DNA from: an uncultured Planctomycetales bacterium
GTDB taxonomy: Bacteria > Planctomycetota > Planctomycetia > Pirellulales > PNKZ01
Reading direction: 5' to 3'
DNA: 64,000 nt
Assembly: GCA_963710365.1 (NCBI GenBank)
Contig: CAVQAC010000019.1
Location: 552,969-616,968 of the forward strand
Shown: in pieces, positions 6,191-63,469 of the stretch
Layout of the letters: each line of letters begins with the position of its first letter
Position numbering within the stretch: the stretch's first letter is position 1
Made by a program: the position numbers and the translations under genes
The notes under the pieces: generated by a model
Databases searched by the model: none
What the model was told of the DNA's origin: nothing
Seen by the model: the letters and a program-made list of their open reading frames with translations, nothing else

Positions 6191-6200
6191 TTCCGGTGAA

Positions 6201-6300
6201 GTAGGGTGCTCTGCGAGCACAATTCTTACGCGAACACACTCGATTAATCGCCTGACTCCGTTTGCGAACTCTGCACAATGGTGCTCGCAGAGCACTCTAC
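6201..6300. repeat. 20-nt inverted repeat (1 mismatch) with a 60-nt spacer between convergent genes; possible bidirectional terminator or REP-like element
   Basis: 6201-6220 gtagggtgctctgcgagcac pairs with 6281-6300 gtgctcgcagagcactctac (reverse complement gtagagtgctctgcgagcac). The right arm overlaps the stop codon of the hydrolase gene. Confidence 0.6.
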
Positions 6301-7678
6301 TGCTTGGCTTCTTCGGGCGCAACCGGCCGGAGCCGCTGCATCTCGACTTTGAAGTCGCCCAGACTGGGCCAGCGCAAGCGGCGATCGAGATCGACTTCGG
6401 CCACGGCGATCGTTCCCCACACGTCGGCCTGGGCCAGCGGCTGACCGTCGTGGCCGTAGATGGCCGAGATCATCCACTTGGCCGCGGCGTCGGTGTAGGT
6501 GCTGGAAATCACGTACACGTGGTTCTCACAAGCCCGCGCGCGCCCAATAGCGGATTGCAGCCCGCCACGGGCCAGGCAATCACTTCAGCGCCGTGGAACG
6601 TCAACTGCCGGGCCACCTCGGGATAGAAGCCATCGTAGCAGATCATCATTCCAACTTTGCCGAAACGAGCCTCGAAGACAGGATACTCGTGCCCTGGCTG
6701 CAAGCCCGATTCCACTTCGCCGCGCGGCAACGTGACCTTGCGGTACTTGCCCACCAACGCACCGTCGGGGCCGATCAGGGCTGCCGTGTTGTAGATCAGG
6801 TGCCCGTCGCGCTCGGTCAAACCCGCCACGATGTACATATCGTACTTCTTGGCCAACCCGCCGAAATAACGCGTCGAGGGCCCCGGTATGGGTTCGGCAA
6901 CATCGACCAGCTCCTTGCCGGTTCCGTACCAGGTGAGCGACTCGGGCAGAACGATCAGATCGACCTTCTGTTTGGCGGCTTCTTGAATGAATGGCTCGAA
7001 CAGGCGGCAATTTCCTTCGGGCGTCTTGTCGGCACTCTTGGGCCGCAGATGCACGGTGGCTAGCCGAACGTGGCGGCCGGCCGGAGCCGATGTCTCCTGC
7101 AGCGAAAGGCCCGAGTACTCGACACGTCCGGGCGTCCAGATCAGATAAAGCTCGATGATCGCCCGCGCGGCCTTGGTGGGAACGTGATACGTGTCGGACA
7201 GTTCGGTCCAACCACGTGAGTCGGCCGTTTTGTCGGTGGGATACTCGGGCTCGGCTCGCGGTTTAGGCGAAGCGTTATAATGGACTGTGGGGCCTGGCTC
7301 GTCATGATTGACGGCGCGGCCTTTCTCGTCGCGCCACTCGATGCGCACGTAAGCCGAACGGCGCGGCACTTCGACTCCTGTGGTCTTGCGCAGCACCGAG
7401 AAGCGATAGCTCTTGCCGCCCGTCACCGGCACCGTCGCCTGCCACCAACCGTGAGCCCCTTCCAGACCGGCGGCATCGAGCACCAGGCTGCCTTGCCCAT
7501 CGACGCCGCCCGGGACGAAGCTGGCCTTTGGTCGGATTTCATCGCGCGGAGCCTCGGCCGTCCACTGATAACCGCGATAGTTCACCGGCTCGCCGGCGAG
7601 CGCCGACCCCGTCACACATGAAGATAGAGCCGCGATGATGGCGACAATCGCGGATCGGGAACGCGGGGATGTATTCAT
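6297..7678 (-). pseudogene. secreted carbon-nitrogen hydrolase (nitrilase-superfamily) protein with N-terminal extra domain, one frame break about 6520-6535
   Basis: Signal-like N-terminus MNTSPRSRSAIVAIIAALSS. The C-N hydrolase core has DLIVLPES (Glu), GKYRKVTLP (Lys) and MMICYDGFYPE (Cys). The C-terminal continuation [13 protein letters not shown]...[10 protein letters not shown] lies in the frame of ORF 6297-6518. Confidence 0.75.
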
Positions 7679-15907: not shown

Positions 15908-16783
15908 TCAGGCGCTCGCCGCGCGGGCGCCGCTACGGCCTGACGGCTTGCGAATGCGACCCTCGTCGCTGGTAGCTGCCGTCAATGATTGTGCGAGTTG
16001 CTCGATGGCCCTGGTGGCGTCGCAGTTCGGGTACGCCAGCACGAACGGCACGCCCTCGGCTGCCGCCTGCGTGACGCACGGATCGCTGGGCAGCTGGCCG
16101 GCCCCGCTGATCTTCAATCCCAAGAAGCGGCGGCAGGCCCGCGACAAGCGTTGCTGGACGTCTGCCGTGGTGGCATGGTCGGCGGCCTCGTTCACCAGCG
16201 ATTTGAGCAAGGGGCGGGGCCCGGCGGCACACAGCACCTTCACCGCGGCATAAGCGTCCATCAGCGACACCACGTCGGGCGTCGTCACCAGCAGCACGCA
16301 ATCGGCCGCTTGCCAAAAATGGCCGATCACTCGATTGGCTCCGCTGCCCACGTCGAGAATGATGTAGTCGGCGTGCGCCCCCAGGCATTTGAGTTGATGA
16401 ATCAATCGCTGTTGGGCCGCGGGCGAGCAATCAACCAGTTCGCCGCGTCCCCAGGCTCCCGGCAGAACCTGGATTCCGGCCGGGCCGCGTTCCAAGGCCT
16501 CGTGAACCGAAAGGGTGCCTGAGAGGATTTCCGCCACGGTGTGGACCGGTTCCTCCAGGTGACACAATCGACCGGCATCGGCCTGCTCCAAGTCGGCGTC
16601 CACTAGCACCGTGCGGCGTCCGTCTCGGGCCAGGGCAATGGCCAGATTCACGGCGATCGTCGTCGTGCCGACGCCCCCTTTGCCGCTGGTGACCACGATC
16701 AACTTGGGAGGTTGTTCCGCGGCCGGAGGGTGCAATGCTGCTCGCAACACCAATTGTCTCAATTCGTTCGCTTGATCGGGCAT
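15908..16783 (-). CDS. flhG: MinD/ParA-type ATPase FlhG (FleN/YlxH)
   Basis: Deviant Walker A VVTSGKGGVGTTTIAVNLA, with DADL and ILDVGSG motifs. It lies directly downstream of flhF, as in other flagellar clusters. Confidence 0.85.
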   Translation of the reverse strand: MPDQANELRQLVLRAALHPPAAEQPPKLIVVTSGKGGVGTTTIAVNLAIALARDGRRTVLVDADLEQADAGRLCHLEEPVHTVAEILSGTLSVHEALERGPAGIQVLPGAWGRGELVDCSPAAQQRLIHQLKCLGAHADYIILDVGSGANRVIGHFWQAADCVLLVTTPDVVSLMDAYAAVKVLCAAGPRPLLKSLVNEAADHATTADVQQRLSRACRRFLGLKISGAGQLPSDPCVTQAAAEGVPFVLAYPNCDATRAIEQLAQSLTAATSDEGRIRKPSGRSGARAASA

Positions 16784-16790
16784 GGCAGGT

Positions 16791-16902
16791 TAGTGATGAG
16801 TGATGAGTGATAAGTGATGAATGGAAAAGACGATGTGCTCAACGATGAATGACAAGTTCAAATGCGGGGCATTTAGCACTTATCCTTGAGCATTTATCAT
16901 TG
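16791..16902. repeat. inverted heptanucleotide arrays (AGTGATR)n filling the flhF-flhG intercistronic gap
   Basis: Left arm 16791-16824 tAGTGATGAGTGATGAGTGATAAGTGATGAATGG. Right arm 16870-16902 CATTTAGCACTTATCCTTGAGCATTTATCATTG, an imperfect complement with 7-nt periodicity that overlaps the flhF stop at 16897-16899. The left arm ends 7 nt before the flhG start. Confidence 0.7.
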
Positions 16903-18047
16903 CCCTTCCAGTCCCAGCACGAGCCTGGCCAGTCGGCGGGCATCGGCCGGTGCGATATCGTCGGGAACATTCTGCCCATCGGTCACATAACTCAAAGGAA
17001 GCTTGCTGGATCGCAACAACGGAAGCAAGGAACCCAGACCCATGGCTTCGTCCAGCTTGGTAAGGATTAAAGCCGTCGTGCCGACCTCGGCAAAACGCTC
17101 GGCGGTGCGCTGGAGCGTCGAGCCGCCGGCTACGCTGCTGAGCACCAGATGCACTTCATCGGCGCCGGCTTCCGTAAGGAAGGATCGCAATTCCTGAATC
17201 TTGACTTCATCCTTGGGGCTGCGGCCGGCCGTGTCTAACAGCACCAGGTCGAGATTCGACATCGACCGCACGGCTTCGCGCATTTCGCGGGGCGTTGAGA
17301 CCACCTGCATGGGCAGATCGATGATATCGGCGTAGGTCCGCAACTGCTCGACGGCCGCGATTCGATAGGTATCGACGGTGATCAGCCCGACCTTGCGCTT
17401 CTCGCGTAAGCGGTAGTTGGCCGCGAGCTTGGCAATGGTGGTCGTTTTGCCCACGCCGGTCGGACCGACGAGCGCCACGAGATGCGCGCGGCCGGCGGTC
17501 AACGCCAGCGGCCCGGCAACATGAATCTGGTCTTCGATCGTCCGAGCGATGTGGGCCTTGAGTAGCATCGGATCATCGCCTGCCGTGGCCGAATGACGCA
17601 TGCTGTCGACAAGTTCACGAGCCAGATCTTCGCCGACCTCGGCATCGATGAGATCCGTATAGAGCCGGAACAGCGACTCGGGCAGGTCCGGCTGATGCGA
17701 TTGGCGTGTCCGACGGCAGAGGGCTTCAACCATGGTTTGCAGTTCGCTGAGTTGGCCCTGCACTTGTTCGCGAAACGGATCGCGAGTTTCTCGCGGCGGT
17801 TGTGCTGGCGCGACGGGCGGACGAGGACTGGGCGGCGGCTGTTCGGGCTCGCGCGGCGGCAGCCGGCTGGGCACGTTCACCTGCGACGAGGCCAGAACCT
17901 CGATCTGTCGAAGCCCGGGGATCCAGCGCAACAGTCGGCTGCCGCAGATTTCCCGAGTGTGCAATACCGCCGCGCTCGGCCCCAGGTCGTGGCGTACCAT
18001 GAGAGCGCCTCTTGCATGGTCCGGGCGCGATAAGTCTTGACTTCCAT
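16897..18047 (-). pseudogene. flhF: flagellar biosynthesis SRP-type GTPase FlhF, one frame break about 18000
   Basis: LVGPTGVGKTTTIAKLA (G1), DTAGRS (G3), LTKLDE (G4). The true N-terminus MEVKTYRARTMQEALS (ATG at 18047) lies in another frame and joins ..VRHDLGPSAAVLHTREI. Confidence 0.85.
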
Positions 18048-18094
18048 GGCAGGTTGATCGATCGGTTTTTAAGGTGAGAAAACAGGTTCTTCCG

Positions 18095-20172
18095 TTACGT
18101 TCGGGCCGGCGGCACGTCGGCGACCAGTCCCAGTGATTCGATCTGCGTATCGCGCGTGATTTCGTTGTAGCTCAGCACCACCAACTGCGGCAGGTGCGAG
18201 GATGTCATCTGCTTGAGCGCCGAGCGGATTTGTGGGCTCACCAGCACGATGGGCGGATGGTTCGTGCGAATCAGTTTGTCCAGCTCCTTGCCGATCAGCC
18301 GGCTGATCGTTTCGATGGCCGTCGGCGACATGCGGATGAACAGGCCTCGATCGTTGTGCTCGAAGCCGGCTCGAATACGGTCCTCCAAGGCCGGGTCGAG
18401 CGTCACGACGTACAACCGGCTGTTGGCGTCGCGATAGCGGCTGCAAATGGTGCGGGCCAACCGATGGCGGACGTATTCGGTCAATAACAAAGGGTCGCGG
18501 GTGCGGCCGGCGTAGTCGCCCAGCGTTTCCAGGATCGGACTGAGTTGGCGGATCGGCACCTGCTCGCGCAGCATCATCTGCAGGATCTGTTGCACTTCGG
18601 CCAGCTTCAACTGGCCGGGAATCAATTCGTCGACCACGGCCGGCGAGGCTTTTTTCAGTTCGTCGACCAGATGCTTGGTGGCGTCGCGACTGAGAATTTC
18701 ATCGGCATGCTTGCGAACCGTTTCGGTCAGATGCGTGGCCAGCACGCTGACCGGCTCGACGACCGTATAGCCCAGCATTTCGGCCTGGTCGCGCTGCGCG
18801 GGTTCGATCCACACGGCGGCAGTGCCGAAGGCCGGCTCCTTGATTTGCAGGCCCTTGAGCTTGCCGGTGGTCACGCCGGAATCCATGGCCAAGAGCATTG
18901 CCGGGTAAATGACGCCGTCGGTGACCGGCACGTCCGACACCTTGAGCCGATAGGAGTTCTGTTCGAGCCGCATGTTGTCGCGGATGCGGACCTTGGGCAT
19001 GATGATGCCGATTTCGGCAGCCACGTTCTGCCGCACGCGTTGCACGCGCTCCAGCAAGTCGCCGCCGCGTTTGGGATCGGCCAGCCGAATCAGGCCTACG
19101 CCGATTTCGATCTCCATCGGATCGACGGACAGGTAGTCTTCGATGCGTTCTTCGGCCGGCTTCTTCTGGTCGGCCTGGGCCTTGGCCTGGGCGACCACCT
19201 TGGTCTGCTTTTGCTTGCGCGAAAGCATCACCGCCAGCGCGCCGCAACCGCCGCCGATGGCGATCAAAGGAGTCTTGGGCAGGCTCGTGAACACCAGCAT
19301 CAGCAGAAATCCGGCAGTCACGGCCAGCGCCTGCGGACGCGAAAACAACTGCGACATGAAGTCCGCCGGCAGGCTGCTGTCGTTGCTCGAACGCGTGACG
19401 AGCAAGCCGGCTGCCAGCGAGATCAGGAAGGCCGGCACCTGGCTGACCAGGCCGTCGCCGATCGTCAGCTTGGTGAAGATTTCAGCGGCGGCGCCGATAC
19501 TCATCCCCGATTCGATGACGCCGATGAACAGTCCGCCCACGATATTGACCAGCGTAATCACGATACCGGCGATGGCGTCGCCGCGCACGAATTTGCTGGC
19601 ACCGTCCATGGCCCCGAAGAAATCTGCCTGGCGGCTGATGTCCAAGCGTCGGCGCTGAGCTTCGCGTTCGTCGATCACGCCGGCGTTCAGGTCGGCATCA
19701 ATGGCCATCTGGCGGCCGGGCATGCCGTCCAAGGCAAAGCGCGCGGCGACTTCGCTAATGCGCGTGGCGCCCTTGGTGATGACGACGAACTGAATCACCA
19801 CGATGATCGTAAAGATAATCAGCCCCACGACGACCCGGTCGCCGGCCACGAACTCGCCGAACGTACGGACGACCTCGCCGGCCGCCAGCAATCCGTGGGT
19901 CTGGGCGCGGTGAGTATCAGCCGCGTCGTGGCAACGTTGAGCACTAATCGGCCCAGCGTCGTGGCCAGCAACAGCGAGGGAAAGATGCTGAATTCCAGCG
20001 GCGTGCGCACGTAAATCGTCGTCAGCAACATGATGACGGCGACGCTGATGTTGATGGCCAATAACAGGTCCATCAGCGCCGGCGGCATGGGCACCATGAT
20101 CACCAGCACGCTGGCAATGAAGCCTAGCGGCAAGATCAGGTCGGCCGCACGGCTGAGCACGTTACGCGCCAC
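18095..20172 (-). pseudogene. flhA: flagellar type III export protein FlhA, one frame break about 19905
   Basis: The C-terminal 598-aa piece carries the FHIPEP core (GAMDGASKFVRGDAIAG) and the cytoplasmic domain. The N-terminal TM piece (..ADLILPLGFIASVLVIMVPMPPALMDLLLAINISVAVIMLLTTIYV..ATTRLIL) is in the frame of ORF 19819-20427. The start is taken as the GTG at 20172 (VARNVLSR..), which is uncertain. Confidence 0.88.
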
Positions 20173-20600
20173 CGGCCGCGGGCAATACACCAGAAGCCAT
20201 CCGTGTCTCCGGTGGTAAGCCGTCAGAAGCGAAGATTTGAACAGGTAGAAAAGAGGGGCGGAAGTTACTGAAAACACTGATGGATGTCCAGTCCGCTTTC
20301 CGCCCCCCGGCAGGCGGACGATCGTCAGCATTGCAGGACTTGCAACTGCCTTCGATCGTAGCCGAGAGGGAAGCGGGGTTGACTTGAAATCGCCAAACCG
20401 GCTACCAATGCTCACCCTCGTCGGCACGCTGATAGCGATGCCGCCACCATGCGGGCAAGGCCCTGCCGGTCGATGGGCAAAAGCGCTTCAAGTCGCAAGC
20501 GGCCGAGGGGCGATAATCCAACGGCTGTCTGGAATCAGACAGACTCAGCATTGCTGAAAACCAGGCCGAATTCATCGGTCGCGTAAACGAGCAAACTCAA

Positions 20601-21116
20601 ATGACGCAGACAAAACGAGCATTCTGGATATGCTGCGTCATCCTCTGCAGTTTTGCTGCTGGCTGCGGCACCGATGCTGGCAACGCTCCGGCCACCAACG
20701 CAGAATCAAAAACCGATTTGCAGGTGCCGCTCGAGGGAGAGGTTCCGTTCGTCGAAGGGTTCCGCCATGGCTGGGAGGTAGCTCATAGCCAAGGTAAACC
20801 GATATTGATCTTATTCACCGCGCACTGGTGCAACTACTGTCATGCCATGGCTCGCGAGGCGCTATGCGAGCCCTCGGTGGTAAAGCTGGCGCAGGAATTT
20901 ACCTGCGTTCTGGTCGACGCCGACGCCGAACCTGAGATCTGCCGACAGTTCCGAGTTCGCGGGTATCCGACCATTCAGTTTTTGTCGCCGCGTGGGCTGC
21001 CGCTGAACCGGCTGACGGGCAAACAACCTCCGGTCCAACTGGTCAACGAGATGCAGGCGGCTTTGCAGGCAGTCGCGCGGCGAGTTGACGAACCGGCGAC
21101 GCCCCGACGGCTGTAA
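20601..21116 (+). CDS. thioredoxin-fold lipoprotein (WCNYC active site)
   Basis: Lipobox CSFAAGC near the N-terminus and the thioredoxin-like motif FTAHWCNYCHAM. It lies on the opposite strand inside the flagellar cluster. Confidence 0.7.
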   Translation: MTQTKRAFWICCVILCSFAAGCGTDAGNAPATNAESKTDLQVPLEGEVPFVEGFRHGWEVAHSQGKPILILFTAHWCNYCHAMAREALCEPSVVKLAQEFTCVLVDADAEPEICRQFRVRGYPTIQFLSPRGLPLNRLTGKQPPVQLVNEMQAALQAVARRVDEPATPRRL

Positions 21117-21406
21117 TGCAATCTTATACAACGACCGGGGGGGATATTGACCAAAGTCATGTCTTCAAATGACATCGGCCAATAGGGCTCACAGCGAGCG
21201 GCGTGGCTTGGCGTTATTTTGCCCAGCTTAAGCCGCTTGCCCCGGCCGTCGTTGTGAAGGTAGTATAGCAAACGAGCGTCAAAACCGCCGAATGCGGGGC
21301 GCAATCGATGTCGTCGAGCAGACCATCGTTATATACGCACCCTTCGGACGCTTCCTCGGGCTAAGCACAGTCGCCGGGGATTGCTGCTTATCCAGGATAC
21401 GTGTAC

Positions 21407-22552
21407 ATGGCGGTCGCCTCGGACCCATCCGCGAAACAGGCCAAGAAAGACGCCCCCGCGCACGAATGGTCGCCGCCGTTCTGGATGGGCATGGATTGCG
21501 CCAGTTGGTTGAAGCTGCTGTGGCGCAATAATTTCGCGGTCGACTTACCACACTCTCACATCGCCGCCAGCATCACGGCGATGAGCGTGCTCCATAGCTT
21601 CTTGGGCACTGTGCAGACGTTGCAACTCGGTTGGTGGTTGCGGCGAGCCAAGGTCGCGCAGCCGCCGGTATTCGTCCTGGGCCACTGGCGTGCCGGCACC
21701 ACCTTGCTGCACGAGTTGATGGTGCTCGACGAGCGCCATACGTCGCCCAGTACGTACGCCTGCATGAACCCGAGCCATTTCTTGGTGTCGGAGACGTTTG
21801 CGCACCGCTGGCTCAATTTCCTGCTGCCGTCGCACCGCCCGATGGACAACATGCCGACCGGCTGGGAGCGTCCGCAAGAAGATGAGTTTGCCCTGGCAAA
21901 TCTGGGCTTGCCGTCGCCCTACGTGACGATCGCCTTCCCGAATCATCCGCCGCAGTACCAGCAGTATCTGACGCTCGACGGGCTATCACCCCGCGACGTC
22001 GATCACTGGAAGCGCGGGTTGATGCGTTTCCTGAGTCACGTCAGCTACCAAGCGCCGGAAAAGCGAATCATCCTCAAGTCCCCGCCGCACACAGGCCGCG
22101 TCAAGACGCTGTTGGAAATGTTTCCCAAGGCGCACTTCGTGCATATCGTCCGCGACCCCTATACGGTTTTCGCTTCGACAACGAATCTTTGGAAGACGCT
22201 GTATACCAAGCACGGCTTGCAGACGCCGCGTTTCGAGGGTTTGGACGAATACGTGCTGCAAACGTTCGAACGAATGTATGACCAGTTCGAACGCGACCGG
22301 TCCCTGTTAAGCGCCGACCAATTCTGCGAAATCCGTTACGAAGATCTGGTGCGCGATCCTGAAATGGGTGTCCGCCGAGTTTACGAACAGCTCGACCTGG
22401 GCGATTTGGATAAGTTCCTGCCGGCATTGCGCGGCTACCTGGCGAGCATGGACGGGTATCAGACCAACCGCTACAACCAATTGACGTCCGATCAGCGCGA
22501 TCAGGTGGCCCAGCGCTGGGGCCGGTTCTTCCGGCAGTACGGATACGCGTGA
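21407..22552 (+). CDS. sulfotransferase-family protein
   Basis: PAPS-binding-like 5'-PSB motif VLGHWRAGTTLLHELM, with downstream KSPPHTGR and IVRDPYTVFAS. 381 aa from the ATG at 21407 (a GTG at 21401 is also possible). Confidence 0.7.
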   Translation: MAVASDPSAKQAKKDAPAHEWSPPFWMGMDCASWLKLLWRNNFAVDLPHSHIAASITAMSVLHSFLGTVQTLQLGWWLRRAKVAQPPVFVLGHWRAGTTLLHELMVLDERHTSPSTYACMNPSHFLVSETFAHRWLNFLLPSHRPMDNMPTGWERPQEDEFALANLGLPSPYVTIAFPNHPPQYQQYLTLDGLSPRDVDHWKRGLMRFLSHVSYQAPEKRIILKSPPHTGRVKTLLEMFPKAHFVHIVRDPYTVFASTTNLWKTLYTKHGLQTPRFEGLDEYVLQTFERMYDQFERDRSLLSADQFCEIRYEDLVRDPEMGVRRVYEQLDLGDLDKFLPALRGYLASMDGYQTNRYNQLTSDQRDQVAQRWGRFFRQYGYA

Positions 22553-22590
22553 ACGGACGAAGAGGGCTCAAACAGCAGATCAGTTCGCGC

Positions 22591-23669
22591 TTAACGCCGT
22601 GGATCGCGTAGCGGCTTCTTGTTGCCGTTCAATTGATAGACATACGCCAGCACTTCGGCCACGGCAGCGTACAGCGGACCAGGGATCGGCCGATTGATGT
22701 CGACGTCCTTGTAGAGCGCCTGCGCGAGCGGCTTCTTCTCGACGATCGGAATGCCGTGCTCTAGCGCCAGCCGGCGAATCCGCTGGGCAAGTAGGCCAGC
22801 TCCCTTGGCCACCACCACCGGCGCCGCCATCTTCTCGGGCTCATAGCGCAAAGCCACGGCCAATTCGGTCGGATTGGTGACCACCACGTCGGCCTCCGGA
22901 ACCGTCTTCGATAACCGATGCAGCACGAGTTGCCGCTGCACCGCCTTGCGACGGGAGATGACCTGTGGATCACCCTGCAGGTTCTTCATTTCGTCGCGCA
23001 GCTCCTGCGTCGACATCCGCAGATCCTGCTCCTGCTTCCACCACTGGAAGCCATAATCCAGAATGGCCAGCAGTAACAAGGCGATAGCCGCCTTGAGCAC
23101 TGTCCAAAAGATAATCTGCAGCAGGTAGGATCCGATCTGCGCCAGTGACAAGGTGGCCAGCCCGAGAATCGTGTCGCGCTCGTCTTTCAGCGACCAAAAG
23201 CAAACCGCCGCGACGACTCCAATCTTGAAGAAGCCCAGCACCAGCCGCACCACGCCAGCCATCGAGAACAGCCGTTGCAAGCCTTGCAAAGGGTCGATGC
23301 GGGAGATGTCAGGGGCAATCTTCTCCGGCAGAAAGAGCAGTCCAACTTGTAGCACGTTGGAGCCCACCGCAACCAGCAGTATCACCCCCAAGAGCGGCAA
23401 GCCGACGGCGGCCAGCAAACCCAACAGACGCAGGAACTCACTGGTGACGAACTGGCTATCGGCCGAGAGCCAGGCCTGCCCGCCCCATTGCTCGATCCCC
23501 AGGTTGCCGAAGAAGCCGATCAGTGATCCGCTCAACCAATAGAGCGTCAACAGCGCTCCCAGCAACAGCAATGACGATCCCAGATCCTGGCTGCGCAACC
23601 TGACCTTGCTCGCGCCTGCTGGCGGCGGTGTGGTGTTGCTTCCTGGGTTTTTTCGTTTCCCTGTTCCAT
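22591..23669 (-). pseudogene. flhB: flagellar export switch protein FlhB, N-terminus spread over three frames (breaks about 23600-23625)
   Basis: The core frame has ..RMSTQELRDEMKNLQGDPQVISRRKAVQR.. and the autocleavage site VVTNPTELAVAL. The canonical N-terminus MEQGNEKTQEATPHRRQQAR (ATG 23669) / EQGQVAQ / SQDLGSSLLLLGAL is recovered only by two 1-nt corrections about 25 nt apart. Confidence 0.85.
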
Positions 23670-23680
23670 AAATCAAATAC

Positions 23681-23883
23681 GGAATGGGGAATGAGAACAA
23701 ATGGGGAATGTCGAATGGGGAATGGGGAATTCGGAACCGATGAAATCAACTGAGAGTTGAGCGTAAGCTCGGATTGAATCGGTTGCTGGAAACTTTTGAT
23801 CGTTCAAATTCCCCATTCCCCATTCCCCATTCCCCATTCCCCATTCCCCATTCCCCATTCCCCATTCCATACTCCCCATTTCC
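23681..23883. repeat. inverted heptanucleotide arrays (GGGGAAT)n / (ATTCCCC)8 filling the fliR-flhB gap; G-quadruplex-capable on the mRNA strand
   Basis: The right arm has 8 perfect ATTCCCC units at 23808-23863 plus degenerate units to 23883, and abuts the fliR stop at 23884. The left arm 23681-23732 has about 7 degenerate GGGGAAT units and ends 11 nt before the flhB ATG. The spacer is 75 nt. Confidence 0.85.
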
Positions 23884-24650
23884 TCAGCTCCACATCTCGC
23901 GCATCAACTGCCAGGCCTGCTCGAGCTGCTCCTGGAAAACCCAGGCTACCGTCCCCAAGGAGACGCCTAGCGCCGCAAAGGTGACCAGCGCGCCAAACCG
24001 AATCCAAAGGAAAGCACGTTGAGTTGCGGCAACGTGCGAGTGATCAGCCCCAACACCACGTTCGACAGTAGCAGGGCCGCCGTGCAAGGCGCGGCAATTC
24101 GCACGCCAAGTTCGCAGCTCAGGGCGACGAGCGTAACCAGGGTCTCGGAAAATGACGCCATCGGCGTGCCCGTGCCCGCCGGCATGGCAATGAAGGTATC
24201 CAACAGTCCACCCAGCACCATCCGATGGCCGCCGATCGTGACAAAGATGGCCAAGGCAAACATATTCAGCACCTGCGACAGCAAGGGAACATCCGTGTCG
24301 AGGTCGGGATTCAGAACTTCGGCCAGCGACATGCCGCCCAATTGGCTGATGATCTGGCCGGCCAACTGCACGCCCGACAAGATGATCATCACGCCCAGCC
24401 CCAGCACCAAACCCAACAGCGTCTCACAGCCGAGTGTAATGACGTAGCCCAACAAAGTGGTGGGCATCGAAAACTGGCCGCCTAGCTGTGCCGGCGTCAC
24501 CAGCAGCGCCAAGGCCATCGATAGAAACACCCGCACCTGCGAGGGAACATTGGCGCCGCCCAGGACCGGCACAGTCATCACCAGGGCGCTGGTGCGAAAC
24601 AGCACCAACGTGAACACGAAGAACTGCGTCAGATCGAACGGTGGGATCAT
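23884..24650 (-). pseudogene. fliR: flagellar export apparatus protein FliR, one frame break about 24000
   Basis: MIPPFDLTQFFVFTLVLFRTSALVMTVPVLG.. is a polytopic membrane protein. The C-terminal 30-40 aa (ALVTFAALGVSLGTVAWVFQEQLEQAWQLMREMWS) continue in the frame of ORF 23884-24087. Confidence 0.8.
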
Positions 24651-24737
24651 ACGCCAGTTGCCAGCAGCCGGTTAGCCGTCGCCTCAATGGCAAGTCCTGG
24701 CTTGCCTGCGGTTCGTGCTCCGCGAACCTTCGCCCCG

Positions 24738-25010
24738 TCAGAGCAACTCGGGAATACCTAGAAATACGTCCTGCACGTAACGCGTCATCTGCCCCAAGAG
24801 CCAGGGGAGCGTCAGGGCCAGCGTCACGATCATGGCAATCAGCTTGGGCACGAACGCCACGGTTTGCTCTTGGATCTGGGTGACCGCTTGTAACAGACCG
24901 ACGATCAGGCCAACGAGCAGTCCCGCCAGCAACATCGGCGCGCTGGCCAACATGGTCATCACGATCGCTTGCCGACCGATATCGATAACGTCTTGAGGAT
25001 CCATATTCAC
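24738..25010 (-). CDS. fliQ: flagellar export apparatus protein FliQ
   Basis: 90 aa with two TM segments, the QAVTQIQEQT motif, and a position between fliP and fliR. Confidence 0.9.
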   Translation of the reverse strand: MNMDPQDVIDIGRQAIVMTMLASAPMLLAGLLVGLIVGLLQAVTQIQEQTVAFVPKLIAMIVTLALTLPWLLGQMTRYVQDVFLGIPELL

Positions 25011-25041
25011 TCTGCGGCGCGCAGGCCGCGGCCAAAGGCCG

Positions 25042-25835
25042 TCACGTAAAGGGTTGAAAACTGTCCAACAACATACCGACGGTCAAATGCCAGCCGTCGA
25101 CCAGCACGAACAGCAGCAATTTGAAAGGCAACGACACCAGCACCGGGGGCAGCATCATCATGCCCATCGAGATCAACACGCTCGACACGACCATGTCGAG
25201 CACCAGGAATGGCAGGTAGATCTGAAAGCCGATCAGGAACGAAGTCTTCAGTTCGCTCAACATGAAAGCGGGCAACAAGGCCTGCAGCGGCACGTCGTCG
25301 TAGCTTTGCGGAATGGTTTTGGTCGGCATGTGCTCCAAGAACAGCCACACGTCGTCGCTATTCCCGGTGCGCTCGATCTGCATGCTCATGAAACGACGCA
25401 CGGGAGCCACGCCGGCATCCCAAGCCTGTTCGAGCGATGCCTGGTGACTGGTGTAGGGTTTGATCCCCTGATCGTAGACTTCTTTCCACACCGGGGTCAT
25501 GACTGCCAGCGTGACGAACAGGGCAATCGAAGTGATGACCTGGCTGGGCGGCAACGTTTGGGTGCCCATGCCTGGCGCAGCAATCCCAACACGATCACGA
25601 CGCGGACAAAACAGGTGGTCATCAACAAAACGGCCGGCGCGAGACTCAGCACGGTCAACAGCAGCATGACCTGCAGCGTCGAACTCAGGCCTTCGGGACT
25701 GGTCCAGACCTCCGGGCCGCCGCTCAGCGCGCTGGGCAGTTCGATCCGGGCCGGGCTGTTCGGTATGTCTTGCGCCTCGGCCGGTAGAATCAAGACGACG
25801 AACGCGACGCTTGCCAGCGCAAGCCACACGGGCAT
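25042..25835 (-). pseudogene. fliP: flagellar export apparatus protein FliP, one frame break about 25565
   Basis: N-terminal piece [22 protein letters not shown]...[20 protein letters not shown] (frame of ORF 25497-26015). It joins ..[26 protein letters not shown]...[42 protein letters not shown]. Confidence 0.88.
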
Positions 25836-25869
25836 TCGCCCACGCCGCCGTGGTTGTGGGTTTGAAATC

Positions 25870-26544
25870 TCAACCACGATCCGCCTCCGCGTCCTTCGGT
25901 CGGTCGTCGAAACCTTCGCTGGCCAATTGCAGATCGTTGCGACGACGCTCCAAGAAACCTTTGGCCGGCTTTTGGCTGAATTGCTGAAACACCTGCCGAA
26001 AGGCCGCCGAAGCACTGTGCGGATGCGATTGTTGGCAAAGCCCGGCCAGGCGGTCGACTTCCAGCGGGTCCGTGATTTCCGTCAGCGTTTCAACCGCCCC
26101 CGGTGCCACCGACAATAGCAACAATTTGCTTCCGCAACGCACCAGGTGCGCATGCTGACGGCCCGTTAAAGGAACACGACCCAGCACCTCGACGACTTCG
26201 CTGGGCAGCATTCGTGGCCCCGCCGGCATGCTCCGCCGCAACAGCCAGATTGACACCACGAACAAACCCAGCACCAGGCCCAGAGCTGCCAGCATCGTGG
26301 CCAGAGAAGGCAGTGGGCTTCGGGCAGTCAGACCCTCACGCGCGTTTTGCGTCGAAGGCGTGACTCGCAGCGGCAACCGCTCGCGTTGCCCGGACATCGG
26401 CAGCGGCTGCGCGCCCGTTGCGACACCGCGAGGAGCGATTGAGCCATTCGCCTCGGTCACGATGCGCGGCCGGGTCGCCATTTCACCCGCCGGCGCAGGC
26501 TCGGCCAGGACCAATAGCAGGATCGCAGCCGCGGGGTTCATCAT
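25870..26544 (-). CDS. fliO: flagellar biosynthesis protein FliO-like
   Basis: One TM segment (LATMLAALGLVLGLFVVSIWLL) is followed by VEVLGRVPLTGRQHAHLVRCGSKLLLLSVAPGAVETLTEI, as in FliO, and the gene sits upstream of fliP. The start is set at MMNPAAA (26544), because the longer ORF would translate the heptamer repeat. Confidence 0.6.
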   Translation of the reverse strand: MMNPAAAILLLVLAEPAPAGEMATRPRIVTEANGSIAPRGVATGAQPLPMSGQRERLPLRVTPSTQNAREGLTARSPLPSLATMLAALGLVLGLFVVSIWLLRRSMPAGPRMLPSEVVEVLGRVPLTGRQHAHLVRCGSKLLLLSVAPGAVETLTEITDPLEVDRLAGLCQQSHPHSASAAFRQVFQQFSQKPAKGFLERRRNDLQLASEGFDDRPKDAEADRG

Positions 26545-26569
26545 CCGTGAATCCAAAGTGGAATTTGGT

Positions 26570-26657
26570 AAGTGATGAGTGCTAAGTGCTGAGTGGTGAG
26601 TGAGGCTGAGACGTGGATTGCTTTGCACTCATCACTGATCACTCCTCACTCATCGCT
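26570..26657. repeat. inverted heptanucleotide arrays (AGTGNNN)5 / (CACTNNN)4 filling the fliN-fliO gap
   Basis: 26571-26605 AGTGATG AGTGCTA AGTGCTG AGTGGTG AGTGAGG. 26626-26657 CACTCAT CACTGAT CACTCCT CACTCAT CGCT abuts the fliN stop (26658). The spacer is 15 nt. Confidence 0.75.
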
Positions 26658-27221
26658 CTATTTGTCGCTTGATATCAATTCGGCGACGCGAACGCAGAAG
26701 TTATCGTTGAGCACGAGCACTTCGCCGCGAGCGATCAAGCGCCCGTTGACGTAGATGTCGACCGGGTCGCCGGCCAGCTTATCCAGCGGCACGACGGCCC
26801 CTTTGCGCAGCCGGAGCACGTCTTCCAGGTACATGTTCGTGCGCCCTAACTCAATTTTCAGATCGAGCTCGACGTCTCTCAACAACTCGAGTGTCGCATT
26901 TTCCTGACTGGGCGGAGCGCCGGTGAATTCCTCCAGCTTGAACGGCTTGGCCGCAGACGGCATTGGGCTGCCTGGGCTGTCGATCGAAGCCAGCGCGCGC
27001 TCGGCCTGGTGCAACAATAGTTCGATATCCTCCGTGGGCGGGCCTGCATCGCCCTGCTCACCGCCTGACGAGGAATCGTGCCGCGCGGAGGCCGATTGAA
27101 AGAGAGACTCTACGCCCGAGGCCGAAGAACCGCCGGAAGTCTTTCCGGCAGCTGTCCGCGCCTCCTTCATCAGCGCCTCGATGTCTTCCTGGCGCAACGT
27201 CTGAGATTCGGGCTCGGCCAT
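26658..27221 (-). CDS. fliN: flagellar motor switch protein FliN/FliY
   Basis: The C-terminal SpoA domain reads [69 protein letters not shown]. The N-terminal [10 protein letters not shown] motif resembles the CheY/CheC-binding peptide. Confidence 0.85.
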
Positions 27222-46549: not shown

Positions 46550-46693
46550 GAACAGAAGGTCGCGAAGAGCGCGAAGGAAGGAATAAGAAATCGAGGCGAG
46601 ATGAAACGGGCGAACAGCAACAGGTCGCTGGCGCGCGAGCGCAAGCATCCGATGCTATTGGTCTTTCTTCGCGTCCTTGGCGTCCTTCTGTTC
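46550..46693. repeat. about 32-nt imperfect inverted repeat with about 78-nt spacer in a 520-nt intergenic region
   Basis: 46550-46581 GAACAGAAGGTCGCGAAGAGCGCGAAGGAAGG pairs with 46660-46693 (reverse complement GAACAGAAGGACGCCAAGGACGCGAAGAAAGACC). Confidence 0.6.
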
Positions 46694-47652: not shown

Positions 47653-48444
47653 TTACGGGCTGCTTTTCAATTCGCTGATATTCAGTTCCGTGTCGCGGCC
47701 GATGATTTCTTCAACGGGGAACTTCGCACCGGGACAGCGCGTGGCTCCCACGTCTTGATGGCACACGATGTTTGGCGGATTAATGTCGAATCGCTCTGCC
47801 AGCGTCCGCACCAATTCTCGCGCCGCCACTACCTGCCGGGGCGTGGGCGGGTAATTGTCGAAATTGCCGACCAGGCAGATACCAATACCTTCTTCGTTGT
47901 AGCTACGGCTGCCGGCATGGGCGCCGTGCAACTGTTGTTTCCAGCGGAAAGTGGGCTCGACCAGGCCATCGGCCATGCCACGGCCGTTTCCGATCAAGAA
48001 ATGATAGCCGATGCCCAGCCAGGGATTCCCCGCACGGTCCTTGCGTTGCCGATGCTCGGCGTCGATCGCCACGACGTCGCCAGAATCCGTCGCGGTATGA
48101 TGCAGCACTATATAGCGCCAGCGTCGCGGCGGAACCTCGGGCTGGATGTCGCTGCGAAACGATACCAGGGCTGTCGGCGTTGCGGCCGAAGCTTCACTGC
48201 CCGAAGCTTCACTGCCCGAAGCTTCACTGCCCGAAGTTGAAACCCTGCCCGAGGTTGGCGACTCTGCAGGCGATTGACGCACGAGCAGTGCAGTGCTGGT
48301 GAACTCGGCGGATGACACCCGAGCGGCACTGTCACTCGCACAGCCGATAACCGCATGCATCGTTGCCATAGTGCAACCCAACAAGAGCAAGCGCGAGACC
48401 AGCCTCCTGCGTTCGATTGCCGACTCTCCTGCTTGCGCCGGCAT
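47653..48444 (-). CDS. N-acetylmuramoyl-L-alanine amidase (Amidase_2/PGRP) lipoprotein
   Basis: Lipobox-like LLLLGCTMATMHAVIGCAS. Amidase_2 core YIVLHHTATD...GIGYHFLIGNG...GAHAG..NEEGIGICLVGNF...HQDV..TRCPG. Confidence 0.85.
   Translation of the reverse strand: MPAQAGESAIERRRLVSRLLLLGCTMATMHAVIGCASDSAARVSSAEFTSTALLVRQSPAESPTSGRVSTSGSEASGSEASGSEASAATPTALVSFRSDIQPEVPPRRWRYIVLHHTATDSGDVVAIDAEHRQRKDRAGNPWLGIGYHFLIGNGRGMADGLVEPTFRWKQQLHGAHAGSRSYNEEGIGICLVGNFDNYPPTPRQVVAARELVRTLAERFDINPPNIVCHQDVGATRCPGAKFPVEEIIGRDTELNISELKSSP
48187..48236 (-). repeat. 15-bp tandem repeat x3.3 inside the amidase gene (encodes SGSEA x3)
   Basis: cgaagcttcactgcc is repeated at 48187, 48202 and 48217, with a partial unit at 48232. 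It translates as SGSEASGSEASGSEAS in the linker after the lipoprotein signal. Confidence 0.9.
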
Positions 48445-49832: not shown

Positions 49833-50025
49833 TCAAGTCAAGGGCCCCCCATCCCGGGCCGCACGCTCCGACTTTGCCTGCCGCAGCCAGCGAAACCTCC
49901 ATCTATTTGCGTGCGCCCGGACCCCTTGCCAAAGGCCTGTTCCGGTCATGCCGGCCCCACGCGGCGCCGGCAACTCTAATCCTGGCGGCCAAAGTCGCGG
50001 CCGATCTGTTTCGCAAGTTGGTAAT

Positions 50026-50101
50026 CACAAGCCCGACGCGCCAGCGAGGGAGCGCAATCTGCAACTCCCACAGAATCCCTCGCTTGCGCGTCGGGCTTGT
50101 G
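50026..50101. repeat. 26-bp near-perfect hairpin (1 mismatch, 24-nt loop) in the mdh / TPR-gene divergent intergenic region
   Basis: 50026-50051 cacaagcccgacgcgccagcgaggga pairs with 50076-50101 tccctcgcttgcgcgtcgggcttgtg. Confidence 0.8.
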
Positions 50102-50265
50102 TTTGCAAGCGGAGGCCAAAATCTCCCCTACTTCAAACACTGAGCGGGCAAAGTGCTTGCCGACACCCAGGGGCCCCTTTAAGCTGTAAGTGTAGGTAAC
50201 GAGGCGGCCGCGAGGGGCTGCGTCGGTAGCGAACATCGGCAACGACCTGGTCAGGAGCGGTTGGC

Positions 50266-51318: not shown

Positions 51319-51362
51319 CGCCCCGGCGGAAGCGCGTCATTCCCCATTCCCCATTGGGCTTC

Positions 51363-53589: not shown

Positions 53590-53696
53590 ACGGCCGTTCG
53601 CGCCGCGGATGAACAACTAAAGAGCTCCAAACTACCGGCAAGCTTGCGCATGCCGCTCGCCACTGCCTACTGCCCTCTGCCTACTACTAAAAGCCC

Positions 53697-55000: not shown

Positions 55001-55089
55001 GTAGAGTGTTGTCGAGCTTTGCGCTGGCGCACCAAATCGCAGGTAAAAACCAAACGTGTTGCGTCTCGCAAAGCTTGACAACACCCTAC
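55001..55089. repeat. 23-nt inverted repeat (2 mismatches, 43-nt spacer) in the nupC / yhaM-like intergenic region
   Basis: 55001-55023 gtagagtgttgtcgagctttgcg pairs with 55067-55089 cgcaaagcttgacaacaccctac. It is flanked by the direct repeats GGTKTTTCACCCCA (54946, 55122) and CGCGATTGG (54976, 55113). Confidence 0.75.
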
Positions 55090-61899: not shown

Positions 61900-63459
61900 C
61901 TAGCTTTTGCGCCGCAGCAGATTGCCGGGACGCTGTGGGCCGGTGGTTTGCTCGTACGCCTTGCGCGCCTCGGCGGCTTGCCCCAGGGCCTCGTACGAAC
62001 GGCCCAGGTTGTAGCGGGCCCCTTCGGTCCAAGGGCCATCAGGCGTGGCCTTGAGCGTGCGCTCGCGGAAGTAGTCGATCGCGACCTCGAACAGCCCTCG
62101 ATCAAAGGACACCAGTCCCAACCAGTAGCTGGCGTCGCGCTTGGCGGTTTCCAGGTTCTGCTCCGCGTCGGCTGAAAGCTTGCCCTGGGCGCGGGCTTCG
62201 TGCAGCGCTGCCTCGGCGGGGCGGCACTCCTGGTATTCGTGAATCGCGTTCCGCTCGCCCGTGTACTTGCCCATCAACTGCAGCACGCGGGCTTGCCAGA
62301 GTTTGGCCGGCGGATCGATGAAAGGGCTCAGCTCGCGAATCGAGGCCTGCCGCCCACGCGAATCGGCCGCTTGCTTGCGGGCGGCTCGCTGATAGGGCAA
62401 CGTCCACAACCGCGTGCCAGCTATAAGCGGATTCTCCTTCAGCCGATTGGCAACCTCGCTCGGATCGGTCGAGAGCACCAATCGGCTGTCGCCGGCCAGA
62501 TCGAGTTCCATGAGCCGGCCACGTTCGGTCAGGTACAACGGCGAAGCTTCGACCAGCGCCACGACGCGGCTGAATTGGTCCGGCTTGAAGCGGTAGGGAT
62601 GCTCGGCGTCGAGCTTCCACTCGGCAAAAACCCGTTCGTCGGCGACAGCCTGGGCGAGCGTCGCCACGCCCTGCCCGCCGGGGCTGGGGATCGGCAGCCC
62701 ATACACCGGATCGAACAGGTACAGAACTTTTTCCAGGAGCACAGCCGGCAGCCAGGCATCGGGGAGCTCGCCCCGCTCGGCGGCCGGACCGGCCTGGGCC
62801 AGCAGTACGGCATCGAGCCCTTGCTGGCGGGCAAGCAACAGCCAAACCCAAGCCCGATCGACCGCTTCGCCGCGGCCAAAAAGCAGCGTCTCCCAAGGGC
62901 GATGCGGCCAGGCGACGGATTCTTCCGACCGTACCGGTTCGAGCTGAATGTTGCGAATCGTCCAATCAAACAGCAGCCGAGCCCGGGTGAGATCGTCCAG
63001 TTCGCGGCCAACCGCCGCGCGGGCCACATCGCGAATCCAAACGGCCTCCTGCAATGTCAGGCCGTCTTCGCGATCGAACTTGAACTGCGCCAGGTTCTCC
63101 AGCGACGGCAGCTTACGAACGTCGGGGGGCAACTCGGCCACCAGCGGATCCACCTGCCAGCCCGCGATCGGCTTGCGGAGCGCGATCCACTGGTTCAATC
63201 GGCCGAGGATCTGCGGCAGCACATCGTTGGGGTTGTAGCGATCGACTTCATTCAACAACCCGACGGCATTGACGAACAGCTCTTCGACGATCTCCTCGCG
63301 AGCCGCGACTCCCGACGCGGCGTCGACTTGCATGCTCGAACCCGAGCAGCCGACGAGCGGGAGAAGCGGGACGAAAAAAAGGAGTAAAAGCGGAAAGCTG
63401 AAAGCGGAAAGCCGACGAAGCCGAACGCTAAAACGCGGCGAGGAGTTCATACGATGCAT
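61900..63459 (-). CDS. lipoprotein with C-terminal TPR-like repeats (central region possibly transglutaminase-like, unverified)
   Basis: Signal and lipobox ..LLLLFFVPLLPLVGCSG. The C-terminus has ASYWLGLVSFDRGLFEVAIDYFRE and ARYNLGRSYEALGQAAEARKAYEQ. The 519-aa frame is intact. Confidence 0.55.
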   Translation of the reverse strand: MHRMNSSPRFSVRLRRLSAFSFPLLLLFFVPLLPLVGCSGSSMQVDAASGVAAREEIVEELFVNAVGLLNEVDRYNPNDVLPQILGRLNQWIALRKPIAGWQVDPLVAELPPDVRKLPSLENLAQFKFDREDGLTLQEAVWIRDVARAAVGRELDDLTRARLLFDWTIRNIQLEPVRSEESVAWPHRPWETLLFGRGEAVDRAWVWLLLARQQGLDAVLLAQAGPAAERGELPDAWLPAVLLEKVLYLFDPVYGLPIPSPGGQGVATLAQAVADERVFAEWKLDAEHPYRFKPDQFSRVVALVEASPLYLTERGRLMELDLAGDSRLVLSTDPSEVANRLKENPLIAGTRLWTLPYQRAARKQAADSRGRQASIRELSPFIDPPAKLWQARVLQLMGKYTGERNAIHEYQECRPAEAALHEARAQGKLSADAEQNLETAKRDASYWLGLVSFDRGLFEVAIDYFRERTLKATPDGPWTEGARYNLGRSYEALGQAAEARKAYEQTTGPQRPGNLLRRKS

Positions 63460-63469
63460 GCTTCGGCTT

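Follow-up and report, generated by a model that had tools for sequence, protein, structure and literature searches.

The DNA analysed here is a stretch of 64,000 nucleotides (nt) from an uncultured Planctomycetales bacterium (GenBank assembly GCA_963710365.1, contig CAVQAC010000019.1, positions 552,969 to 616,968), referred to below as the window; all positions are counted from its first letter. Four gaps between co-directional genes in the window, three of them between flagellar genes, contain tandem arrays of 7-nt units arranged as inverted pairs, with one array at the stop codon of the upstream gene and the other close to the start of the downstream gene. These elements belong to a class of heptanucleotide repeats already known from Xanthomonas, Nostoc/Calothrix and Beggiatoaceae, found here in a Pirellulales planctomycete. 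We interpret them as long simple-sequence repeats (SSRs) that were born by replication slippage, filtered by translation signals and able to fold into tolerated hairpins, a reading to which we assign a probability of roughly 0.6. The heptad pairs resemble a device for flagellar control less than they do a slippage by-product that translation signals have shaped.

Arrays were detected using Tandem Repeats Finder (TRF) and a lag scan in which a region was retained if it had at least 17 of 21 lag-7 matches. The lag scan returned six period-7 regions in the window and none for every other period from 4 to 12, compared with a chance expectation of 0.05 period-7 regions in first-order Markov simulations. 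The arrays form four inverted pairs (flhF|flhG, fliR|flhB, fliN|fliO and kdsA|lipoprotein) and two solo fragments, giving six heptad sites within 64 kb of the source genome, and four unit types (AGTGATG-type, GGGGAAT, AAAGCGG and CACTGCC) occur side by side. A first-pass annotation, made from the sequence alone, had reported that period-7 arrays fill the three flagellar gaps, and TRF recovered arrays at the positions it gave. It had also described the two arrays of each gap as mutually complementary. The degree of complementarity in fact differs by gap, being strong at fliR|flhB, moderate at fliN|fliO and weak at flhF|flhG. For comparison, bacterial loci of about 246 kb were fetched via flagellar genes (cited below by L numbers).

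The stop-proximal arm of the fliR|flhB gap (23808-23883, minus strand; TRF 23808-23880, ATTCCCC with 10.4 copies, score 125) reads as about ten GGGGAAU units on the mRNA and starts directly 3' of the fliR stop codon (23884-23886). Judged from its sequence it has a G-quadruplex-type motif (G4N3), and the other units of the window are without G-tracts. The start-proximal arm (23676-23736, minus strand; TRF 23681-23730, 6.7 copies, 69% matches) consists of interrupted AUUCCCC units, and its periodic part (23681-23730) stops about 11 nt 5' of the flhB ATG at 23669. The two arms are 87-94% complementary (inverted repeats I1-I7). The gap has a predicted folding energy of -113 kcal/mol (z -7.8) and the arm-arm duplex one of -95.2 kcal/mol (z -9.1), with a stem of about 50 bp. 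The loop is a spacer of about 71 nt (23737-23807, minus strand) with small stems of its own. The spacer was also considered as a repeated element in its own right, which was ruled out, as it is single-copy in the window.

At fliN|fliO, the stop-proximal arm (26626-26658, minus strand; TRF 4.7 copies) reads AGCGAUG AGUGAGG AGUGAUC AGUGAUG AGUG on the mRNA, begins at the fliN stop codon (26658-26660) and has stop triplets in all three frames. The start-proximal arm (26569-26605, minus strand; TRF 26571-26602, 4.6 copies) reads CACUCAC CACUCAG CACUUAG CACUCAU CACUUA and ends about 25 nt 5' of the fliO ATG at 26544, with a conserved initiation region in between. The arms are 78% complementary (I12), and predicted folding is less extreme here (gap z -2.3; arm-arm duplex -33.4 kcal/mol, z -4.7). 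The variable positions of the units fall in internal loops of the hairpin and are not mirrored between the arms.

The flhF|flhG gap has the same layout with little pairing. Its stop-proximal array (16870-16902, minus strand; TRF period 14, 2.4 copies) overlaps the flhF stop codon (16897-16899) and reads AAUGAUA AAUGCUC AAGGAUA AGUGCUA AAUG on the mRNA, with a 14-nt super-period. The start-proximal array (16790-16824, minus strand; TRF 16792-16820, AGTGATG with 4.1 copies) reads as four CACUCAU units, contains no G and no start codon, and ends 8 nt 5' of the flhG ATG at 16783. In the minimum free energy (MFE) structure the 5' array pairs with the spacer (about 16825-16860) and the CACUCAU array is left single-stranded (gap z -1.8). 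The arm-arm duplex reaches only -12.8 kcal/mol (z -3.3), and the pair is absent among the inverted repeats listed.

A fourth inverted pair, which the first-pass annotation had missed, lies outside the flagellar genes at kdsA|lipoprotein (63386-63485). Its 5' arm (63462-63485, minus strand), AAAAGCGGAAAACUGAAAGCCGAA, is of the AAAGCGG type and covers the last kdsA codons together with the stop codon (63470-63472; I15, 92%). Its 3' arm (63386-63415, minus strand) has four CGGCUUU/CCGCUUU units within the part of the downstream lipoprotein gene that encodes the signal peptide; the ATG of this gene is at 63459 or 63450. The identity of this gene is backed by signal peptides in the homologues P0124, P0127, P0129 and P0131; the lipoprotein of the source genome (P0121, 100% identical; window 61900-63333) is annotated without its signal peptide. 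The two solo sites are an ATTCCCC fragment and a G-poor array. The fragment, which had been noted earlier near 51339-51352, was confirmed at 51338-51355 (CATTCCC, 2.6 copies by TRF) in a convergent gap, where it is G-rich on the sense strand of a minus-strand gene and lies 8 nt 3' of the stop codon of that gene. The G-poor array (53662-53685, plus strand) reads CACUGCC UACUGCC CUCUGCC UAC and sits 12 nt 5' of an ATG at 53697 (N-terminus MPRLISFFGLWVLIGLAW...).

The positions of the arrays relative to genes depend on correct gene boundaries. The start codons of flhG (16783), flhB (23669) and fliO (26544) are backed by conserved N-termini in relatives (FlhG MPDQANEL; FlhB MEQGNEKTQEATPHRRQQAR in L017, L002 and L003; FliO MMNPAAA), and the stop codons lie at 16897 (flhF), 23884 (fliR) and 26658 (fliN). 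The geometry given in the first-pass annotation, with one arm at the stop codon and the other just 5' of the next start, holds. The annotation had allowed that misassigned flhB and fliO starts would make the repeats coding. The conserved start codons exclude this for all three flagellar gaps, and of the window arrays only the arm at 63386-63415 is coding. No Rfam model matched the gaps at the gathering score, and at E values up to 1 only generic miRNA-precursor hairpin models appeared, far below threshold.

Comparison with relatives showed that the elements are gained, lost and resized at given gene junctions. Unit counts at fliN|fliO, given for the 5' and then the 3' arm, are 4.5 and 5 in the window, 3 and 5 in L014 (FliO identity 92%), 5 and 4.5 in L015 (84%) and 3 and 2 in L001. 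L016 (78%) has none in a gap of 15 nt, and L017 (69%) has none in an unrelated 85-nt spacer. Copy number therefore changes in 7-nt steps between constant flanks, namely coding sequence on one side (the fliN 3' end) and, on the other, the downstream initiation region GGATTCACGG-ATGATG, which lies outside the hairpin. The orthologue alignment at this junction shows presence and absence with sharp borders and no target-site duplication, and the two arms of a pair diverge independently. The public fliO start lies inside the array in L001 (position 1913) and L018 (position 10001), so these gene calls were misled by the repeats.

Other junctions behave similarly. At fliR|flhB, L012 (94%) carries a GGGGAAT array directly 3' of the fliR stop codon and the contig ends within the array, L017 has a small hairpin of 4/4 units with a loop of 11 nt and without the 71-nt spacer, L005 carries different units, and the heptad element is absent in L002 and L003. 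None of the three relatives examined at flhF|flhG (L002, L004 and L006) has the arrays. At kdsA|lipoprotein in L025, four GGATGAA units provide the kdsA stop codon, five CAGTGNN units lie in the loop, and eight TTCATCC units reach the signal peptide; L023 has an 8-nt gap and L022 a different palindrome at this junction. Further pairs and arrays were found at fliN|fliO in L018 (AAATGCA/TGCATTT) and L002 (GTCCGTN/CACTGAC, with heptad hairpins also 3' of the last gene flhB), at fliQ|fliR in L005 (GGATGAA/TTCATCC), at fliP|fliQ in L010 (Rubripirellula; ACAGGTG against CACCTAA and CACCTGT, 137 nt long), before motA in L019 (a CTTCGGT/GAAGTCC pair and a TCATCCT array), and in L020 (nine solo GGGGTCA units 3' of flhB and six ACTCCTT units directly 5' of fliI). 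Different units have thus appeared independently at one and the same junction, with fliN|fliO showing this in three lineages and kdsA|lipoprotein and fliR|flhB in two each. The first-pass annotation had proposed that absence from orthologous junctions in close relatives, with no expression effect, would count against its reading, and absence is what was found. Array gain and loss, differing units at the same junctions and the kdsA|lipoprotein pairs therefore indicate that the elements are labile, arise recurrently and are not tied to the flagellum.

Two further features were seen at flagellar junctions. The fliQ|fliR gap of L012 (67-246) contains an insert of 180 nt that includes a long palindrome of REP-like type (GGTGCCATGCCCACGCTTGCGTGGGCATG...), compared with only 87 nt at this junction in the window, and L020 (481-849), a Pirellulales metagenome-assembled genome, has a gene for a 23S-rRNA-intervening-sequence/bAvd-like protein between fliH and fliI, followed by the ACTCCTT array up to the fliI start. 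No heptad arrays were found in two non-flagellar loci of about 35 kb (L022 and L023), and a metagenome scan with FliR returned one close relative only. Periodicity of 7 residues in called proteins was also used as a stand-in for upstream arrays; it picked up only P0230 and is thus of low sensitivity.

The arrays follow a strand rule. On the mRNA, the stop-adjacent arm is G-rich and the start-adjacent arm G-poor in 4/4 window pairs. Of the 11 independent paired sites in the Pirellulales loci, 9 obey the rule, L018 being neutral and L019 reversed, and all six solo arrays obey it too. Start-proximal arms are nearly free of AUG, GUG and UUG, and the G-poor arrays also lack purine-rich ribosome-binding motifs.

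The same architecture is present in phages. Viral contigs from IMG/VR were scanned for three units in either orientation, giving 136 stretches (L026-L161; 1.26 Mb, median G+C 0.62) with 411 period-7 arrays, compared with at most 84 for any other period. Of the arrays that could be placed, 321/348 lie between co-directional open reading frames (ORFs). They occupy 202 distinct co-directional gaps, and the upstream frame reads through only 16 of these. Overall, the arrays sit almost only between co-directional genes and are excluded from reading frames, with the arm at 63386-63415 as the exception in the window. Where a gap has both arrays they are usually reverse complements. The order is G-rich then C-rich in 31 of the 32 phage gaps holding both types, and polarity is also kept in the 10 of these 32 gaps whose G and C arrays are not complementary. 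The median distance in phages is 3 nt from the stop codon to the beginning of a G-rich array, and 15.5 nt from the end of a C-rich array to the first in-frame start. For solo arrays, counted where a gap offers 60 nt or more of free sequence, the ratio of those nearer the stop to those nearer the start is 14:7 for G-rich and 6:32 for C-rich arrays. The G-rich/G-poor rule points to a translation-linked constraint: opposite strand preferences at the two ends of one short untranslated stretch would be expected from translation and not from a replication or transcription bias. The 202 phage gaps and the kdsA|lipoprotein site also overturn the notion that the architecture is restricted to flagellar genes.

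Two of the contigs were sampled and proved to be real phages that encode terminase, portal and head protease. One portal protein shares 89% identity with a prophage protein from Ca. Thiodictyon, a purple sulfur bacterium, and the GGATGAA unit is found both in Pirellulales and in a Chromatiaceae-type Mu-like phage. Because of the portal match, the heptad class, and even the GGATGAA unit, crosses phyla. Phage contigs such as L044 and L094 share GGATGAA, AAATGCA-type and CACTGAC units with the Pirellulales loci, with equal polarity. A phage stretch of about 1 kb in L045 (3257-6316) has at least five AATGCAG arrays, each followed by GGATGGA units, with a few hundred nt of spacer in between; the stretch resembles a higher-order repeat made up of heptad arrays.

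The units themselves were compared with known translation signals. Shine-Dalgarno mimicry was rejected, as the 66 distinct units match the 16S 3' tail no better than composition-matched permutations (median rank 0.5, Wilcoxon p = 0.97). Neither start codons nor GGA, the CsrA motif (20/67 units against 21.0 expected), are enriched among the units. TGA is in slight excess (20 against 12.9, P = 0.02). ARTG units are over-represented (21/67 against 7.6 expected), as are AGT and CAG, an excess that is confounded by relatives of the seed units.

The first-pass annotation knew of no described element of this structure, yet close counterparts are on record. G-rich heptameric SSRs, GGGAATC in Xanthomonas and GGGGA(C/T)T in Nostoc, lie between aligned ORFs, G-rich on the coding strand within 50 bp after a stop codon, often overlapping it, and C-rich on the coding strand within 50 bp before a start codon (Rehm et al. 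2015; PMC4692102). Xanthomonas has 70-75 convergent (inverted) pairs per genome; the repeats vary in length among related genomes while the repeat type is kept, their neighbouring genes share no function, and their role is unexplained (PMC4692102). The window elements have in common with them the tandem 7-nt units, the placement in gaps, the inverted pairs, the length changes and the strand rule, and GGGGAAT is one position apart from GGGAATC. They differ in that they occur in another phylum (Planctomycetota), that several unrelated units, most without G-quadruplex (G4) potential, occur in 64 kb, and that arms can enter coding ends (the KdsA C-terminus and the lipoprotein signal peptide). As summarised in PMC4679880 and PMC4692102, the survey of long SSRs by Mrazek et al. 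(2007) found that 7-nt units dominate long SSRs in large, high-G+C genomes of non-pathogens, proposed replication slippage as their origin and noted that units which are not a multiple of three are kept out of coding sequence; in that summarised form the survey is without inverted pairing or stop/start polarity, unlike the present arrays. The window arrays show what marks heptanucleotide long SSRs, with copies beyond chance, intergenic positions between co-directional genes, strand polarity and copy-number variation at a locus. Beyond prior descriptions, there are several unit types per genome, independent origins at the same junctions and arms that extend into coding ends, together with identical polarity in phage operons and in non-complementary arrays.

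Other heptanucleotide repeats are less similar. TAACTGA direct repeats of marine Beggiatoaceae, some cyanobacteria and Bacteroidetes lie a few nt 5' of start codons, precede genes without a functional theme and are almost never inverted, with one indirect repeat among 170 sets (MacGregor 2015; PMC4679880). Their placement resembles the solo G-poor arrays before flhG and, in relatives, before fliI, motA and flhB, but TAACTGA is a single unit and the units of the present arrays differ; TRF found no TAACTGA arrays in the window. The short tandemly repeated repetitive (STRR) sequences of heterocystous cyanobacteria, reportedly with units CCCCAGT, TTGGTCA and CAACAGT (Mazel et al. 1990), are likewise dispersed intergenic tandem heptanucleotides with several unit types per genome. 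They have other units and belong to another phylum than the Pirellulales host here, and none of the three units occurs in the window. A literature search found no paper joining the terms heptanucleotide, tandem and Planctomycetes.

These observations are consistent with the following scenario. Arrays would originate, and change length by 7 nt at a time, through replication slippage, with fold-back template switching as the probable process that keeps complementary arms similar. Selection would act through translation signals to determine which orientation survives at each end of a gap, removing those that place AUG, GUG or purine-rich motifs before a start codon. A complementary pair in a polycistronic mRNA would form a register-tolerant 'zipper' hairpin. 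As this hairpin would loop out the insert and leave stop and start close together, the insertion would be tolerated. Any effect on flagellar expression would be secondary and dispensable, with a barrier to 3' exonucleases or RNase III cleavage as candidates, and would not involve a dedicated coupling switch.

Several points weigh against this scenario. The recurrence of heptamers at unrelated sites and across phyla, and the excess of ARTG units, are not predicted by pure slippage, and avoiding false starts is not by itself enough to explain why G-rich arrays favour the position near the stop codon. That different units have come up repeatedly at the same junctions might mean that a hairpin is selected for there and not merely tolerated. 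In addition, most arrays in the bacterial comparison loci lie near flagellar genes, an enrichment that is confounded by the choice of the loci through such genes.

A role in mRNA processing or stability, with the hairpins acting as 3' exonuclease barriers or RNase III sites, is another reading, which we consider rather unlikely as the main explanation. It could provide a step-down from abundant FliN to the scarce export-gate proteins FliO, FliP, FliQ, FliR and FlhB. The predicted fliR|flhB stem is very stable, and its length of about 50 bp is typical for RNase III substrates. Hairpins with different units recur at export-gate junctions in several lineages, and heptad structures after the last gene flhB (the hairpins of L002 and the solo GGGGTCA array of L020) would also fit. 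Against this, presence and absence differ among close relatives, the fliN|fliO and flhF|flhG stems are weak and broken every 5 bp, and many arrays are solo or non-complementary. Nor do the elements resemble terminators: they lack the G+C-rich stem followed by a U-tract of an intrinsic terminator, a terminator scan was empty at the three flagellar gaps with overall counts equal to those of shuffled sequences and no U-tracts, and no promoters or terminators above shuffles were found in these gaps.

An unlikely further explanation is that both arrays are modules of a cross-phylum intercistronic 'hand-off' element acting in translation. One possibility is that the G-rich module closes all frames and holds or releases the terminating ribosome, and that the G-poor module is a start-codon-free, unstructured landing pad for Shine-Dalgarno-independent initiation, with pairing between the two tuning coupling. 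This would explain the polarity in Pirellulales, Xanthomonas, Nostoc and phages, non-complementary pairs included, and the repeated rise of different heptamers at the same junctions.

The first-pass annotation had favoured enforced translational coupling, in which the hairpin hides the downstream start region until a ribosome terminating upstream melts it. This now appears quite unlikely. The arms do adjoin the stop codon and end about 8-26 nt before the start, the leaders of flhG and flhB are G-poor and have no Shine-Dalgarno motif while other genes of the cluster have one, and the position-specific polarity suggests a translation-linked constraint; this polarity is equally true for non-complementary and solo arrays, however. 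Coupling was modelled with partition functions as the mean unpaired probability of positions -12 to +2 in free mRNA and with a ribosome footprint on the upstream stop codon. The model shows initiation regions that are already about half open in free mRNA. Predicted opening is modest at flhF|flhG (0.52 to 0.76), where the arms are unpaired with each other in the MFE structure, and slight at fliR|flhB (0.43 to 0.53), where surplus 5' units would re-pair after melting; in the model, the greater length of the 5' arm provides alternative registers that leave positions -20 to -7 mostly paired. At fliN|fliO the initiation region is not part of the stem and would be unaffected (0.49 to 0.43). Of the coupling claim there remains the modest modelled effect at flhF|flhG. 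The predicted openness, together with orthologous junctions of relatives that have no element or a different one, makes an obligatory coupling role unlikely. Known coupling hairpins, such as those of MS2 coat/replicase and of ribosomal-protein operons, are conserved and non-repetitive and demonstrably occlude the start site. The heptad stems likewise join the end of a cistron to the next initiation region, but they are labile and repetitive, and the start site is mostly open in modelling.

The first-pass annotation had also offered, as a fallback, a stabilising element or a selfish repeat like the repetitive extragenic palindromes (REPs), which comes closer to the reading that the evidence favours. 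A mobile family inserting between genes, similar to REPs or miniature transposable elements with inverted repeats (MITEs), is nevertheless very doubtful. REPs, bacterial interspersed mosaic elements (BIMEs) and GTAG/CGTC-tagged palindromes form intergenic, often intercistronic hairpins, occur in Planctomycetes and are thought to affect mRNA stability; REPs are fixed palindromes of 20-40 bp with a terminal tetranucleotide tag, mobilised by REP-associated tyrosine transposases (RAYTs) (Di Nocera et al. 2013; PMC3733652). Insertion would account for the sharp-bordered presence/absence polymorphism and for unit families shared across loci (AGTGATG-type in two gaps, GGGGAAT at two sites), and GTAG-tagged REP-like palindromes (PMC3733652) exist elsewhere in the genome. 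Unlike REPs, the heptad elements have no GTAG/CGTC tag and no fixed length and show internal 7-nt periodicity, and unlike MITEs they have no conserved termini or fixed terminal inverted repeats and no target-site duplication. Their unit sequence and copy number vary continuously, the arms independently, and there are more than 60 different units. It is similarly improbable that the arrays are sequence-specific binding sites (for S1, Csp or CsrA-like proteins) or a (GGGGAAU)n G-quadruplex regulating translation or transcription: oligonucleotides related to GGGGAAT and the Xanthomonas unit form G4 in vitro (PMC4692102), TAACTGA repeats just 5' of starts have been proposed to bind S1, Csp or CsrA (PMC4679880), and ARTG, AGT and CAG are in excess, but the units are highly diverse and mostly unable to form G4, the GGA and 16S-tail comparisons above were negative, and the elements are dispensable in relatives.

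The window has a G+C content of about 61%, and its flagellar proteins are closest to Pirellulales metagenome-assembled genomes (FlhB identity 64-65%). The flagellar genes, all on the minus strand, were assigned by Pfam families for a sigma factor, FlhG (ParA/MinD-type), FlhF, FlhA, FlhB, FliR, FliQ, FliP, FliO, FliN, FliL, FlbD, FlgE, FlgD, FliK, FliI, FliH, FliG, FliF, FliE, FlgC, FlgB and a sigma-54 activator. The genes around the three flagellar gaps are flhF (16897-18000; Pfam SRP54) and flhG (15908-16783; ParA/MinD), whose termini are conserved in L002, L004 and L006, fliR (23884-24650) and flhB (22591-23669), and fliN (26658-27221) and fliO (25870-26544), all on the minus strand. They do not form the single operon originally supposed: flhA-flhF-flhG is separated from the unit ending with flhB by plus-strand genes for a thioredoxin (20601-21116) and a sulfotransferase (21401-22552). 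This interruption between flhB and flhA (window 20601-22552) is kept in the 69% relative L017 (11208-13409). Some of the remaining flagellar junctions are 4-nt overlaps, as the first-pass annotation had noted for junctions other than the three gaps, but many are gaps of 30-130 nt. Compared with close relatives, fliR is frameshifted by a 1-nt deletion (one G of a G-run, near 23985), flhB by two 2-nt deletions within 20 nt (23590-23620, the frame changing near 23600-23615), and flhA is split into two frames (18095-20427); these frameshifts could be assembly errors or reflect flagellar gene decay in the host.

Other repeats in the window are distinct in structure. GTAG-tagged REP-like palindromes at 6200-6301 and 55001-55089 have arms of 23-25 nt that are 91-92% complementary and are distinct from the heptad elements. 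A palindrome of units of about 9 nt at 46550-46693 (GAACAGAAGGTCGCGAAG... / ...CTTCGCGTCCTTCTGTTC) has a related copy at the kdsA|lipoprotein junction of L022 (7830-7905), which indicates a second dispersed hairpin family. A perfect 15-nt tandem, CCGAAGCTTCACTGC, with 3.4 copies (48186-48236; TRF score 102) lies apparently within an ORF and would encode a 5-residue protein repeat, and a strong hairpin at 50023-50104 has 29-nt arms, 93% complementary, and a 24-nt loop.

In practical terms, heptad arrays mislead gene callers, as seen for fliO in L001 and L018 and for the signal peptide of P0121, and break assemblies, as in L012, which ends in an array. In many large bacterial genomes, no other type of long SSR is as common as heptanucleotides. 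The present case adds a new phylum and an orthologous series of gain, loss and resizing. If a single cause lies behind the polarity, it would amount to a general rule for how translation signals constrain intercistronic sequence.

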